In this document: piece after piece, positions 27,167-32,007 of the stretch | Layout: each line of letters starts with the position of its first letter | Numbering within the stretch: the first letter of the stretch is position 1 | DNA from: a virus | Strand: one strand, 5' to 3' | Length of the DNA stretch: 32,947 nucleotides | Virus genome (UHGV): UHGV-0038968 | Notes under the pieces: generated by a model | What the model saw: only the letters and a program-made list of their open reading frames with translations | Told to the model about the DNA's origin: nothing | Databases searched by the model: none | Translations under genes and position numbers: made by a program

Positions 27167-27995
27167 GACGATGCCCTCCGCTGATATTCAGGAGACGGTG
27201 AATATGAAAATTAGCCTTATCCGCCAGACGAATACGTTCAGCTTGCAAGTTAAGAAGGGTTTCTACCAGAACCTGATGTGCCTGCGGATCCGAAAGAGTT
27301 ACCTTGCGCAGAGCACGTAGTGCAGTTGTTACATAACTGAGTTTATGTAAGTCTTCATCATTCAGACGAGTGAGGGCTGGGACAGTAGCCATGATGGCAG
27401 CCTCCTTGATCGGTGAAATACTTCCACCACCGGAAACGCCAATTTCGCTGGTGGTGAACTGAACGGGGTTGGCGTAACCGGTGATCAAGGAAACCGGCGC
27501 ATCTTTCGATGCCCCCGCCCAGCCCACCATAACTTTGATGTGAGCAAATGCGGACGATAAAAAAGACGCTGGCGCGTCATATATCGCCTTGATCAATTCC
27601 AGGACGCCAATCCCGGCACCCGCTTTATAAGGTGCCTGAACAGTGTAACGTCCCGGAATGGCAGAATCAATGTGCTGGTGGTCCTTCACACTCAACAAAA
27701 TCACGCCTGAATTTCCACAAAGGGCTAAAGCACTCATGCGGGTAGTCTTTGCGAAGATAGATAACGCGCTGTGTTTCTGACTCCCAACGAATAACATGAA
27801 CATAAAGTCCTCTTCCGTCACGAAACCAGCGGTTAAGTTCCTGCACAACTCGCCCCCCACAGTCAGGTAAAGTTCTCTGTGGTTACTTACAGCCAGGAGA
27901 TTTGGTAATCTGCATTCATGCCGTAACAACACGTGTTCAGCGACGCTGACCACCAGCTGTTGCGACAAACGGTTATTTGCCGTTAAACTGTTCAT
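27159..27995 (-). CDS. Hypothetical protein (278 aa), unknown function, early-right operon
   Basis: Long ORF tightly packed between the CII/YdaT-like gene and the small ORF; no motif recognised (no Walker A). Confidence 0.55.
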   Translation of the reverse strand: MNSLTANNRLSQQLVVSVAEHVLLRHECRLPNLLAVSNHRELYLTVGGELCRNLTAGFVTEEDFMFMLFVGSQKHSALSIFAKTTRMSALALCGNSGVILLSVKDHQHIDSAIPGRYTVQAPYKAGAGIGVLELIKAIYDAPASFLSSAFAHIKVMVGWAGASKDAPVSLITGYANPVQFTTSEIGVSGGGSISPIKEAAIMATVPALTRLNDEDLHKLSYVTTALRALRKVTLSDPQAHQVLVETLLNLQAERIRLADKANFHIHRLLNISGGHRHA

Positions 27996-28793: not shown

Positions 28794-28883
28794 ACAATAT
28801 GTACCTCCGGTGTACATATTACATGATTGAAATGAACCTTCAAGATACTTGTACCTTAACGGTACAAGGGTTTTAATTTCGTT
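28794..28883. promoter_or_regulatory. Right operator/promoter region between cro and cI
   Basis: Two palindromes: ATGTACC-TCCGG-TGTACAT (28799-28817) and CTTGTACC-TTAAC-GGTACAAG (28847-28868); candidate minus-strand promoter TTGAAG (28838-28843) and TAATAT (28816-28821). Confidence 0.55.
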
Positions 28884-29558
28884 ATGAAAACAATCCATGA
28901 CATCCGGCGGTCTAACGCCAGAAAATTGAGAGATGGTGTTGGCGGGAATTCTTCCTTTGCCACTATGATTGATCGCGAGCCAACCCAGACCAGCAGGTTT
29001 ATGGGAGATGGTGCTACTAAAAATATCGGTGACAGCATGGCACGACACATCGAAAAATGTTTCGACCTGCCTGTCGGATGGCTCGATCAAGAACACCAGA
29101 CAACGAACATCACAAAAAAACCTGATGTTTCAATCACTAATAAACAAATCACATTAGTCCCTGTCATATCATGGGTACAGGCCGGAGCATGGAAAGAAGT
29201 TGGATATTCTGAGGTTGATTTGAGCACAGCAGAAACGTATCCCTGCCCTGTACCCTGTGGGGAAATGACTTATATCTTGCGGGTGATAGGTGATTCAATG
29301 ATTGATGAGTACCGCCCGGGAGACATGATTTTTGTCGATCCTGAAGTACCTGCCTGCCACGGTGACGACGTTATTGCATTGATGCACGATACAGGCGAAA
29401 CCACCTTCAAAAGGTTGATAGAAGATGGGACACAGCGTTATCTCAAAGCGTTAAACCCAAACTGGCCTGAGCCTTACATTAAGATCAACGGTAATTGCTC
29501 TATAATTGGTACAGTGATTTTCTCAGGAAAACCAAGAAGATACAAAATCAAAGCCTAA
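28884..29558 (+). CDS. CI-type repressor with C-terminal LexA-like S24 autopeptidase domain
   Basis: 224 aa; N-terminal HTH region, C-terminal VIGDSM (Ser) and TTFKRL (Lys) motifs of S24 peptidases; divergent from cro. Confidence 0.85.
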   Translation: MKTIHDIRRSNARKLRDGVGGNSSFATMIDREPTQTSRFMGDGATKNIGDSMARHIEKCFDLPVGWLDQEHQTTNITKKPDVSITNKQITLVPVISWVQAGAWKEVGYSEVDLSTAETYPCPVPCGEMTYILRVIGDSMIDEYRPGDMIFVDPEVPACHGDDVIALMHDTGETTFKRLIEDGTQRYLKALNPNWPEPYIKINGNCSIIGTVIFSGKPRRYKIKA

Positions 29559-29572
29559 TCAATGTTTATGAA

Positions 29573-29593
29573 CCTGCTTCGGCAGGTTTTTTT
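29573..29593 (+). terminator. Intrinsic terminator after the repressor gene
   Basis: CCTGC-TTCG-GCAGG followed by TTTTTTT. Confidence 0.7.
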
Positions 29594-29597
29594 ATAC

Positions 29598-29631
29598 TTG
29601 ACAATGTACCTTTGGGATACATAATGTACCC
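29598..29631 (+). promoter_or_regulatory. pL-like promoter with overlapping operator
   Basis: TTGACA (29598-29603), 16-17-nt spacer, CATAAT/ATAATG; palindrome ATGTACC-TTTGG-GATACAT (29604-29622) of the same form as the right operator, plus another ATGTACC at 29624-29630. Confidence 0.6.
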
Positions 29632-29751
29632 AAGCGAAACAACGAACAGGCAGGACGCCCACGAAGTAGCCGCCTGGGGCATATGAAGTCCAGGATGATT
29701 CGTTGAGTCATGTTGTGCCACTAGGCACTCATGTTAAAGCAGGTGTATGAA

Positions 29752-30027
29752 ATGAAAGTCCAGATTTTAAACAATAACTGTGAAGTCGTTTGGTCATACG
29801 ACATAGCCGCCCCTGTAGATCAGAGCGGCGATAGCTGGACCAATGGGAAACATCAGATTATGGCTGGAGTTGTGTTCTCTTTACGCCGTGCTTTGGAACA
29901 GGCTGAAGTATTTCCATCAGACCCTGAATGGAAATGGCCTTTTTCTATTTGTCCAAATTCGGAGAGCACATTTCAGAAAATTGGTCAGAAAGTCGCACTC
30001 GAAGAGCATCAGCCAACTGTTTCCTGA
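29752..30027 (+). CDS. Hypothetical protein (91 aa), first gene of the leftward early operon; not N-like
   Basis: Start at MKVQ with AGGTG 6 nt upstream (track ORF begins 29731 without SD); no Arg-rich motif. Confidence 0.5.
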   Translation: MKVQILNNNCEVVWSYDIAAPVDQSGDSWTNGKHQIMAGVVFSLRRALEQAEVFPSDPEWKWPFSICPNSESTFQKIGQKVALEEHQPTVS

Positions 30028-30190
30028 TTTTTTCAGGTAACTCGTCGGCATCGCAGAAACAACAACGCTCGATCATGTTGAAAGCCGATTCGTAGAACTG
30101 TTTCTGCTGAGTGTCGCTGAGACAGGAAAAGAGCGACGTTACGATGATTTTATTAATTGCATTATCAAGTTCTTTTTCATCAAAAGTCAT
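29945..30190 (-). CDS. Hypothetical protein (81 aa), convergent and 3'-overlapping with the previous gene
   Basis: AAGGAAA 6 nt upstream of the ATG; overlaps 29945-30027 with the plus-strand ORF, so one of the two may be spurious. Confidence 0.4.
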   Translation of the reverse strand: MTFDEKELDNAINKIIVTSLFSCLSDTQQKQFYESAFNMIERCCFCDADELPEKIRKQLADALRVRLSDQFSEMCSPNLDK

Positions 30191-30445
30191 TTGATTTTCC
30201 TTTTATGTATACGGGCTTAAAAGGATACCACCGAGCCTGAAGTGGTGAAAAGACAGGCACATAACAGCTAAGTATTTTCAACCAGAGAGAATCCTTAGCG
30301 TTGTGGTGAATGCGGCTCAGCGCACGCGGGTTAAGGTTGAGGCTGACAGTCGACCTTCTGTGGATACCCACCCGTCTGGTGTGCAACCTTCGCCAGGCAC
30401 CGGGAGGCACCCGGCACCACAACTTTATGCTGTGTGTAGTCCTGG

Positions 30446-30490
30446 CGGTACCAGTTTGTACCCTTGCTTCCGGCTGGTACCGTCCTTTTT
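30446..30490 (+). terminator. Intrinsic terminator-like hairpin in the GC-rich non-coding region
   Basis: CGGTACCAG (30446-30454) pairs with CTGGTACCG (30474-30482), 19-nt loop, then TCCTTTTT. Confidence 0.5.
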
Positions 30491-30579
30491 ACAAAACAGA
30501 GAAGAGCATCACCGGACGACGGGCTCATAACCCAATCCATCCGGGCGGCTGCTACCGCAGGTGTTCTTCTCTGTTTTGT
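30491..30579. repeat. 15-bp perfect inverted repeat with 59-bp spacer, upstream of the yfdP-like gene
   Basis: ACAAAACAGAGAAGA (30491-30505) and TCTTCTCTGTTTTGT (30565-30579). Confidence 0.5.
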
Positions 30580-30627
30580 GGAGAAACTAATCGGCCTTGC
30601 AGGGTCGATATGATGAGGAGCAGCAAA

Positions 30628-30990
30628 ATGGCTAGCGAACGCAGTACTGATGTGCAGGCATTTATCGGGGAGCTGGACGGCGGCGTATTTGAAACCAAAA
30701 TCGGCGCAGTTCTCAGTGAAGTCGCTTCCGGTGTGATGAACACGAAAACCAAAGGTAAGGTCTCACTCAACCTGGAAATCGAACCATTTGATGAGAACCG
30801 TGTGAAAATCAAACACAAACTCTCATATGTTCGCCCGACTAACCGCGGGAAAATTTCCGAAGAAGACACCACCGAAACGCCGATGTATGTCAATCGCGGT
30901 GGTCGCCTGACTATTCTGCAGGAAGACCAGGGACAATTACTGACTCTTGCCGGTGAACCTGACGGAAAACTCCGCGCAGCAGGTCATTAA
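30628..30990 (+). CDS. yfdP: YfdP-like hypothetical protein
   Basis: 120 aa from MASERSTDVQ with GAGGAG upstream; the track's N-terminal extension from 30310 looks non-coding; size and order match CPS-53 yfdP. Confidence 0.55.
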   Translation: MASERSTDVQAFIGELDGGVFETKIGAVLSEVASGVMNTKTKGKVSLNLEIEPFDENRVKIKHKLSYVRPTNRGKISEEDTTETPMYVNRGGRLTILQEDQGQLLTLAGEPDGKLRAAGH

Positions 30991-31055
30991 TATCGTTCTT
31001 AATTAACTGATTATTTATCTCATCACTGAATATCTTTATATAGTGAGGACTTATT

Positions 31056-31880
31056 ATGTCTCAGAACTTAGACGCAACCGCAATTAATCAAATCCATGCC
31101 CTTATTTCTGCTCAGGGTGTTAATGAAATTATCAGTAAGATTGGTGCCGATGCTGTGGCATTGCCTGAGAATTTCCGCATTCATGATCTGGAAAAATTTA
31201 ATTTAAATCGCTTCCGTTTCCGTGGTGCGCTTTCCACTGCCAGCATCGATGACTTTACCCGTTATTCTAAAGATCTTGCAGATGAAGGCACCCGCTGCTT
31301 TATCGATGCTGATAATATGCGTGCCGTCAGTGTGCTTAACCTGGGTACTATTGATGAACCAGGTCACGCAGATAACACCGCCACTCTCAAACTGAAAAAG
31401 ACAGCACCGTTCTCTGCTCTGTTGTCTGTTAATGGCGAGCGTAACTCCCAGAAATCACTGGCAGAATGGATTGAAGACTGGGCCGACTACCTTGTGGGCT
31501 TTGATGCTAATGGTGACACCATTCAGGCAACAAAAGCGGCTGCGGCGGTCCGTAAAATCACGATTGAAGCAAACCAGACCGCTGATTTTGAAGATAATGA
31601 CTTCAGCGGCAAACGCTCCCTGATGGAGTCTGTCGAAGCGAAGACCAAAGACATTATGCCAGTGGCATTTGAATTTAAATGCGTTCCGTTTGAAGGTCTG
31701 AAAGAACGTCCGTTTAAATTACGCCTCAGTATTATCACTGGCGATCGTCCTGTACTGGTTCTGCGCATTATTCAGCTGGAGGCGGTGCAGGAAGAAATGG
31801 CTAACGAATTTCGTGATCTACTTGTTGAGAAATTCAAGGACAGCAAAGTAGAAACCTTTATTGGTACTTTCACCGCCTGA
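31056..31880 (+). CDS. yfdQ: YfdQ-like protein (DUF2303)
   Basis: 274 aa, [21 protein letters not shown]...; length and N-terminus match my recollection of E. coli CPS-53 YfdQ. Confidence 0.7.
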
Positions 31881-31892
31881 TTTCATTACTGC

Positions 31893-31914
31893 AAATGCCC
31901 CTGCGGGGGCATTT
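31893..31914 (+). other. Hairpin after the yfdQ-like gene
   Basis: Perfect 9-bp stem AAATGCCCC / GGGGCATTT with 4-nt loop; weak U-tract, so attenuator or stability element more likely than a strong terminator. Confidence 0.4.
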
Positions 31915-32007
31915 ATGGAAACGTAATTTACTCAATAATCGCCGGATGGTGAGGGATTCTTTTTACCAGAATTCAGCGCGGTGCAGCGCATATACGTGGA
32001 GAACAAA

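Follow-up and report, generated by a model that had tools for sequence, protein, structure and literature searches.

A 437-nucleotide (nt) non-coding stretch of the viral genome UHGV-0038968 (positions 30,191 to 30,627 of the 32,947-nt sequence that was analysed, called the window here) lies inside the early-left (pL) operon, 0.6-1 kb 3' of pL/OL and directly 5' of a yfdP-like gene. Its best explanation, and one which we consider probable, is a small RNA (sRNA) gene of the STnc100/PasD type that ends at an intrinsic terminator, T1, followed at 30491-30627 by the leader of the early-left mRNA made by read-through. The RNA has a conserved fold, it is related to a known RNA family, and its ends match those of a relative, sRNA-17 of Escherichia coli K1, which was mapped by rapid amplification of cDNA ends (RACE). 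Although unannotated, the stretch is in essence an element of a known kind: a prophage sRNA gene with an operon-gating terminator.

The family was found with an E-value Rfam scan of 29500-31100, in which STnc100 (RF02076) matched 30270-30492 on the plus strand (41.2 bits, below the gathering score; E = 4e-7; model positions 1-206 of 206) and the seven other matches all had E > 0.4. Sub-threshold STnc100 matches occur at the same locus in ST64B, 118970_sal3 and phiES15. Viral contigs were also scanned with the motif ACCGGGAGGCACCCGGCACCA. Of the 115 distinct sequences found in this way, nearly all carry UGGUGAA at a distance of 63-111 nt upstream, and many are bona fide Rfam STnc100 at 57-132 bits. 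The window RNA has the shared STnc100 core: P1 (UGGUG/CACCA), P2 with a UNNGC loop, P4, and P5 (CCGGG-AGGCA-CCCGG). A covariance model, R1, whose seed sequences are mostly bona fide STnc100 and include the window sequence itself, gives the window RNA 79.6 bits.

STnc100, PasD1, PasD2 and EcOnc27 (sRNA103) share with the window RNA the core motifs UGGUGAAU and ACCGGGAGGCACCCGGCACCA, the helices P1-P5, the pseudoknot and a 3' intrinsic terminator, and like it they sit in prophages, co-oriented inside an antiterminated operon. The window copy differs in its place, which is the early-left (pL) operon and not the Q-holin/stx late region where theirs are found; it has no strong promoter abutting P1, its terminator loop is unusually large, and its P2 and P3 are fully compensated alternative sequences. 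Taken on sequence and modelled structure, the window RNA is best classed as a peripheral STnc100 member of the prophage STnc100/PasD group. A preliminary description of the stretch, made from its letters alone, had listed a small RNA among several possible readings and had pointed out a terminator, and both are supported by this family assignment and by the position and ends of sRNA-17.

Many of the relatives have a good sigma-70 promoter with its -10 ending about 7 nt before P1. A canonical intrinsic terminator follows P1 at 20-45 nt in many of them, and a terminator is recognisable in 72 of 93 distinct downstream contexts. Often 2-5 diverged units form a tandem array, with a spacing of about 250 nt, and the usual sites of the relatives are between the Q antiterminator gene (PF03589) and holin, or after stx2B before nanS-p. 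Arrays were seen at the IMG/VR loci L024, L032, L069, L015, L030, L070 and L086, often beside phage tRNA genes. Of the eleven STnc100-type copies expressed in strain EDL933, one has Northern-blot confirmation (PMC5331693). EcOnc27/sRNA103 overlaps the copy located after stx2B (PMC12711010), and PasD1 and PasD2 are Hfq-dependent and STnc100-related (PMC8550237; bioRxiv 10.64898/2026.05.13.724894). Family members are expressed and Hfq-bound in both enterohaemorrhagic and enteropathogenic E. coli (PMC5331693, PMC12711010, PMC8550237, bioRxiv 10.64898/2026.05.13.724894). The relatives are discrete, expressed, often Hfq-bound RNAs of unknown function. A second family copy in the window, suggested by 12.8 bits at 31881-31994, was rejected; that score was caused by a terminator-like hairpin.

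The fold of the core was evaluated by covariation across relatives. RNAalifold, run on 47 representatives, gave 25 pairs, 12 of them with compensatory changes, and R1 was built from that alignment and aligns 77 distinct sequences. In the 77-sequence alignment 97.6% of cells are paired, compared with 84.7% in shuffles and 41-48% in controls with slid partners, and two-sided changes are found at 18 of the 25 pairs. The outer pairs of P1 covary (GC:43 and AU:24 at one position, for example), P3 has two-sided changes at all three pairs, and the P2 of the window differs from the canonical CCCCC..GGAGGGG by fully compensated changes. At one position of P4, G.U is the most frequent pair (44 of the 77 sequences), which fits the plus strand only. 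Compensatory changes across relatives are seen in the core, in the pseudoknot and in the two hairpins further downstream, H2 and H3.

Two short complementarities noticed in the preliminary description, CCGGG-AGGCA-CCCGG and AAGGTTG with CAACCTT, are both real features of this fold, the first as P5 and the second as the pseudoknot between the P3 insert and the P4 loop. Complementarity of the pseudoknot is kept in about 26 distinct sequence types, such as CCAGUC/GACUGG, AUCAGC/GCUGAU and AGACUGACAAA/UUUGUCAGUCU. When the P4 loops were defined without reference to the pseudoknot, the score was 15.3 for cognate partners and 8.1 for swapped ones; the swap was done at group level, the ungrouped version being diluted by related sequences. 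At the same locus, phage LLS (L007:1814-1955) has a divergent core whose P5 is GGUGG-AGGCA-CCACC, a compensated stem with the same loop, and phiNP (L006:1800-2010) keeps the P1 ends and the linker around an interior that is larger and different and that escapes the model.

The stretch had also been described as GC-rich and highly structured. The GC content is raised locally, to about 60% at 30300-30450, but not overall, the whole stretch having 53.6% and the window 52%. The structure was borne out by folding: the 388-nt plus strand at 30240-30627 has z = -5.6 and the minus strand z = -2.6, and most of this signal is due to the long hairpin (z = -6.0) and to the terminator (z = -4.4).

The closest mapped counterpart is sRNA-17 of E. 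coli K1 RS218, a 193-nt RNA defined by 5'/3' RACE, detected by Northern blot and encoded in an mEp460-like prophage, for which its authors reported no Rfam homologue (PMC7719688). Phage mEp460 served as proxy for RS218, and all sRNA-17 primers (PMC7719688 Table S2) match it exactly, in the orientation used here. On mEp460, sRNA-17 covers L003:2354-2547, from CGUUGUGGUGAAUGCG (the P1 5' strand) to the T1 U-tract, and in a pairwise alignment its ends fall at window 30299 and 30489. The two RNAs agree in locus (repressor/pL region to yfdP), in strand and in length (193 and about 192 nt), and they have in common the 5' 18 nt (AGCGUUGUGGUGAAUGCG), the P1 3' strand (CACCACAAC) and a T1 that is about 96% identical. 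The sequences upstream of the RNA differ between mEp460 and the window. By this alignment, the window RNA is the positional counterpart of mapped sRNA-17, with a much better preserved STnc100 core.

How well the core is preserved bears on a second reading, in which it is an STnc100-type remnant, only T1 and H2 are selected, and the RNA has no trans role. The core is fast-evolving or degenerate at this locus: with R1 the mEp460-type core reaches 21 bits compared with 80 for the window, LLS 38 bits, and phiNP is undetected. T1-H2 is highly conserved throughout, and no promoter of the RNA's own is evident in the window. However, the SfV, ST64B and phiES15 copies retain every helix, with compensatory changes and invariant loops, conservation of the linker motif extends to phages that have otherwise diverged, and the mEp460-type RNA, degenerate as it is, can still be detected as an sRNA and is associated with a phenotype (PMC7719688). 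A decaying remnant is possible for the mEp460 and phiNP lineages and misfits the SfV/ST64B/phiES15 cores, and as an explanation of the window we think it unlikely.

The terminator-like hairpin of the preliminary description has 11-bp arms at 30444-30454 and 30474-30484 around a 19-nt loop, followed by C and T5 (30486-30490). It stands 20 nt after P1, within the spacing of 20-45 nt seen in the family, its stem changes among close relatives mostly preserve pairing, and its counterpart in sRNA-17 is the 3' end mapped by RACE. The only strong promoter 5' of the stretch is pL, which has the second highest score in the window (13.3) on a simple promoter matrix. Between T1 and yfdP there is no promoter above 6.7, the best match lying inside T1, and the early-left genes are therefore reached only by read-through of T1. 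In the wild-type RS218 lysogen yfdP is essentially silent, at 0.5 reads, while sRNA-17 is made (PMC7719688, Table 1), which means that T1 stops transcription effectively there.

When the core in RS218 was replaced with a resistance cassette and T1 was kept, yfdP went up 95-fold and yfdR from 0 to 8 reads (PMC7719688). The authors read yfdP and yfdR as trans targets, and the orientation of the cassette is unstated (PMC7719688). Both of these reported 'targets' lie immediately downstream. Since yfdP is the very next gene, its rise is at least as likely to be an effect in cis, either because transcription ran on from the cassette or because some cis function was lost.

The same experiment can be counted in favour of a cis-acting attenuator or riboswitch-like leader, in which the core senses a ligand or protein and sets termination at T1, with the free RNA as a by-product. 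The layout resembles that of a riboswitch, with a P1-closed junction and pseudoknot, then a linker, a terminator and co-oriented genes; loops and junctions are nearly invariant; and most copies precede co-oriented genes (nanS-p, holins, yfdP, kil). Yet in 72 members of the family the terminator 5' arm is no more complementary to the core or the linker than expected (median z 0.11, 1% above z = 2), and therefore there is no antiterminator. The linker is long and varies across subfamilies, the tandem arrays of complete promoter-RNA-terminator units favour free-standing genes, relatives are found as discrete RNAs that accumulate and are bound by Hfq (PMC5331693, PMC8550237), and the rise of yfdP in RS218 is equally explicable by cassette read-through. 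Altogether we regard an attenuator as quite unlikely.

For the sRNA gene with a read-through leader, the proposed mechanism is that the small RNA would be released by termination at T1. Transcription would come from pL after induction and possibly, in the lysogen, from a weak promoter ending in GAGAAT (30287-30292); alternatively, the 5' end of the RNA would be made by processing. We infer that the RNA works together with Hfq and in trans, as PasD and EcOnc27 do, probably via the conserved linker, and that T1 also insulates the downstream genes, so that yfdP...xis/int would be reached only by polymerases passing T1. The linker motif UGCUGUGUGUAGUC is conserved among the pL-operon copies, and the linker is a candidate seed or Hfq-contact region.

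Other phages offer a parallel to this arrangement. Sy et al. reportedly described, in PNAS in 2020, lambda pR'-6S RNA-tR' and StxS as short terminated transcripts in antiterminated phage operons, some of them acting as sRNAs. Many STnc100-type relatives likewise lie between the Q gene and holin with a promoter and a terminator, and the window has a similar short terminated RNA before genes that need read-through. There is no sequence relationship to lambda 6S or StxS, however, and the window copy is in the pL operon, where no Q-type factor is known to act.

Several observations weigh against the sRNA gene as proposed. The Rfam match does not reach 47 bits, the gathering score of STnc100. The alignment used for covariation, A6, was itself fitted to the model, and the invariance of P5 partly reflects how the sequences were collected, which was by a motif scan. 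The sRNA body at 30299-30490, folded alone, is not stabler than shuffles (z = -1.5), and its structure is therefore argued from covariation and not from energy. Identity to sRNA-17 is no more than about 50% in the interior, and the two linkers are unrelated, so the sRNA-17 targets and ArcA control that have been reported are not transferable to the window RNA; ArcA control, targets and a virulence phenotype are reported for the RS218 RNA only. The forward primer used for quantitative PCR of sRNA-17 lies 249 nt upstream of the RACE 5' end (mEp460 locus L003:2105-2547), so a longer precursor exists, and the mapped 5' end may be a product of processing. No convincing sigma-70 promoter was found before P1 with the simple position matrix: the best candidate, AAGACA-17-TATTTT at 30250, scores 6.7, a value met by 0.3% of positions, and the -10-like GAGAAT is without a -35, with TAATGC or TAAGTG in its place in relatives. 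The T1 loop is unusually large and the tail has only five U. No trans target was identified, and the linker has no complement elsewhere in the window.

Downstream of T1, the preliminary description had found a perfect 15-bp inverted repeat just before yfdP. It is present, at 30491-30505 and 30565-30579 with 59 nt between the arms, and 300 dinucleotide-shuffled versions of the region contain perfect inverted repeats of 11 bp at most. The repeat is part of the 20-bp stem of a longer hairpin, H2, which is conserved and previously undescribed; the T1-H2 leader matched no Rfam family. The block from the T1 tail to the yfdP start is conserved in an alignment of SfV-like phages, ST64B, 118970_sal3, phiNP, LLS and mEp460. 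A scan with the invariant apical sequence found 71 distinct H2 variants, nearly all directly after a terminator U-tract, and the terminator stems before them differ among themselves. In 35 distinct homologues 95% of the cells of the H2 stem are paired, and compensatory changes occur at 6 of the 20 pairs (for example C-G in 19 and A-U in 10, or G-C in 23 and C-G in 11). The H3 stem is CGGCC/GGUCG in the window and GGCGG/CCGCC in ST64B, phiNP and LLS.

Some contigs lack yfdP and yfdQ, and there H2 directly precedes yfdR, so H2 belongs to the operon entry and not to yfdP. In these contigs the H2 leader is joined directly to a hairpin, AAUGCCCCUGCGGGGGCAUUU, and the window has the terminator-like hairpin AAUGCCCCUGCGGGGGCAUUU, the cause of the 12.8-bit score, at about 31893-31913 (+), between yfdQ and yfdR. 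A processing site, which the preliminary description had thought possible for the stretch, may apply to H2: it is a plausible RNase III-type processing or stability site, which seems its most likely role. If H2 were cut, the sRNA would be parted from the message of yfdP, or the translation of yfdP would be tuned. In lambda, tI/sib and the N-leader RNase III site have a long duplex by a terminator or just 5' of the ribosome-binding site of the first pL gene. They are like H2 in this respect, and they have no sequence similarity to it.

The preliminary description had left room for a protein-binding DNA site, and in such a reading the GTACC motifs and the 15-bp repeat would bind the phage repressor or another protein, as an extra operator or a cruciform. 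The phage operators are TGTACC-N5-GGTACA, and T1 has GGTACC twice and TGTACC once. The three GTACC motifs that were pointed out are present, at 30448, 30458 and 30477, but they are not conserved as a set: two of them are opposite arms of a stem containing the palindrome GGTACC, and the third, in the loop, is variable, reading GTACAC in close relatives and missing from phiNP. Their spacing and orientation, N13 and N4, do not match the inverted N5 of the operators, and the stem GGTACC is kept in phiNP and mEp460, which have other immunity specificities, while the stem of ST64B is unrelated. One U.G wobble of H2 is kept in 32 of the 35 homologues, which points to plus-strand RNA, since on the other strand, or in a DNA cruciform, the U.G and G.U pairs of H2 would turn into A.C mismatches. 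The conserved wobbles fit plus-strand RNA only, and a DNA-level site is highly improbable.

The put-like antitermination element that had been suggested for these coordinates fares no better. It would be a processive antitermination RNA that binds polymerase, so that downstream terminators are ignored and N is replaced. The preliminary description had found no N gene, and this agrees with the analysis: there is no N-like gene, the first pL gene being orf33 (phrog_3195), and no boxA consensus near pL. The early-left genes form a long operon behind a terminator and need read-through, and the window RNA is like HK022 put in being a cis-encoded structured RNA in the early operon of an N-less phage. 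But HK022 putL and putR gave only chance-level BLAST words, R1 has no match in the HK022 region, and the architecture differs, put having two stems in about 70 nt (PMC9378689) and the window RNA five helices and a pseudoknot in about 125 nt. The window core starts 670 nt after pL with its own terminator immediately 3', and most of its relatives are self-contained terminated units, often in arrays. We give this reading scarcely any chance.

A better-placed element for antitermination is conserved at 29636-29712, in single copy in the window. It is found in ST64B, 118970_sal3, phiNP and another contig, all with different immunity regions, and one of its hairpins covaries (CCUGG/CCAGG, CCGGU/ACCGG, CCCGG/CCGGG). 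It has the anchors CGAAC and GGAUGA in common with putL/putR, at similar spacing; a joint alignment with putL/putR gave no convincing common structure, and homology is not shown. The exact pL-leader motif is upstream in 45 of 113 H2-bearing loci. Sitting at the put/nut position, the element is a candidate, and only that, for the signal that lets pL transcription pass T1. The features of the locus are collected in the table.

Table. Features of the early-left region around the predicted small RNA (window positions).
Feature	Position	Strand	Remarks
cro-like gene	first in the local map	-	
OR operators	28798-28866		type TGTACC-N5-GGTACA
cI	28884-29558	+	followed by a terminator at 29570-29589
Early-left promoter pL	29598-29625	+	TTGACA-16-CATAAT; overlapped by two operators at 29603-29641 (TGTACC-N5-GGTACA type)
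Conserved structured element	29636-29712	+	first ~75 nt of the pL transcript
orf33	29731-30027	+	phrog_3195, function unknown; first pL gene
81-amino-acid open reading frame	29945-30190	-	phrog_3311; good ribosome-binding site
Predicted small RNA	30299-30490	+	~192 nt; from STnc100 match, covariance model R1 and sRNA-17 end alignment
Core	30300-30423	+	five-helix junction and pseudoknot; ~125 nt
P1	30300-30308 (GUUGUGGUG) with 30415-30423 (CACCACAAC)	+	closes the core; covariation
Junction AAU	between P1 and P2	+	
P2 hairpin	30312-30327	+	GCG-GC[UCAGC]GC-A-CGC; family-wide UNNGC pentaloop, bulged A
P3	30328-30330 (GGG) with 30371-30373 (CCC)	+	encloses a variable insert
Pseudoknot	30333-30339 (AAGGUUG) with 30384-30390 (CAACCUU)	+	P3 insert, after the P3 5' strand, with P4 loop
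P4 hairpin	30374-30398	+	all five modelled pairs covary
Single A	between P4 and P5	+	
P5 hairpin	30400-30414	+	CCGGG-AGGCA-CCCGG; within near-invariant motif ACCGGGAGGCACCCGGCACCA
Linker	30424-30443	+	20 nt, single-stranded; UUUAUGCUGUGUGUAGUCCU
Intrinsic terminator T1	30444-30490	+	11-13-bp stem, 15-19-nt loop, U5 tail
Leader hairpin H2	30491-30510 with 30560-30579	+	20 bp in RNA, including 2 G.U
H2a	30512-30544	+	invariant core GACGGGCUCAUAACCCAAUCCA; one compensatory closing pair
H2b	30545-30558	+	variable; H2 stem, H2a and H2b form a three-way-junction cap
Conserved GGAGAAAC	30580-30587	+	
Hairpin H3	30590-30609	+	covarying
Shine-Dalgarno of yfdP	30615-30620	+	GAGGAG
yfdP-like gene	30628-30990	+	phrog_204, function unknown; ATG at 30628

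The 441 bases around the stretch are 99.5% identical to Shigella phage SfV and 96-98% identical to many E. coli prophages and phages. The window is an SfV-like temperate phage. The stretch, whole or in part, was found in 2785 of 5426 complete E. coli genomes, with at least 80% query coverage in 1814, and is currently annotated there as nothing or as a frameshifted pseudogene. The whole region is absent from K-12 CPS-53, which could not serve as a source of transcript data. The early-left block has yfdP first, then yfdQ, yfdR and yfdS, and in SfV it goes onward to xis and int. The phrog_3311 open reading frame (ORF) overlaps the 3' end of orf33 and is antisense to the pL transcript, and other relatives have a different minus-strand gene (144-157 amino acids) at this spot, which is apparently a moron insertion point.

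No convincing ORF was found in the stretch, in agreement with the preliminary description. The long, 226-amino-acid ORF was rejected as a gene, being yfdP with a spurious extension at its 5' end: the homology to K-12 yfdP starts some 20 nt 5' of the ATG, which lies 8 nt after GAGGAG and which PGAP also takes as the yfdP start. A minus-strand ORF at 30331-30540 was likewise rejected, as it crosses segments that are nucleotide-invariant at all codon positions or broken by indels in relatives. RefSeq/PGAP has a 'frameshifted hypothetical protein' pseudogene over the RNA and leader, at window 30303-30613 (L128 2614-2924), and mEp460 has an annotated 48-amino-acid minus-strand ORF over the same region; both annotations look artefactual. 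The window has no tRNA or tmRNA. At curated thresholds the Rfam scan found only C4 and isrK, elsewhere in the window: C4 antisense RNA (RF01695, 82 bits) at 27447-27534 (-) is beside isrK (RF01394, 64 bits) at 27559-27635 (-) in the pR-side operon. Together they are an immI/Gifsy-type RNA control module that probably governs an antirepressor, and ST64B has isrK at the equivalent place.

A wider role for the core is conceivable, though we hold it doubtful. Some conserved factor of the cell or the phage, such as RNA polymerase, a chaperone, a ribonuclease or a defence protein, might have the STnc100/PasD/sRNA-17 core as its dedicated ligand, with the window copy part of an N-independent xis/int circuit. 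This is suggested because the fold, a five-helix junction with a covarying pseudoknot and invariant UNNGC and AGGCA loops, exceeds what a base-pairing sRNA needs, and because it is also found in tandem arrays by phage tRNA genes and at operon entry points. If this were true, the window copy, T1-H2 and the element at 29636-29712 would make up an N-independent control of the early-left (xis/int) genes in SfV/ST64B-type phages.

The reading as an sRNA gene followed by a read-through leader connects three separate literatures, those on Rfam STnc100, on the Pas sRNAs and on sRNA-17, with the link between STnc100 and sRNA-17 made in the present analysis, and the family gains a tested secondary structure that includes a pseudoknot. 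It also suggests that the largest transcriptome change in the sRNA-17 deletion, the 95-fold rise of yfdP, may be a cis effect on a neighbour gene. As the sole barrier between pL and yfdP...xis/int, T1 bears on how excision genes are silenced in SfV/ST64B-type prophages and on how these prophages turn the same genes on in the absence of an N protein.

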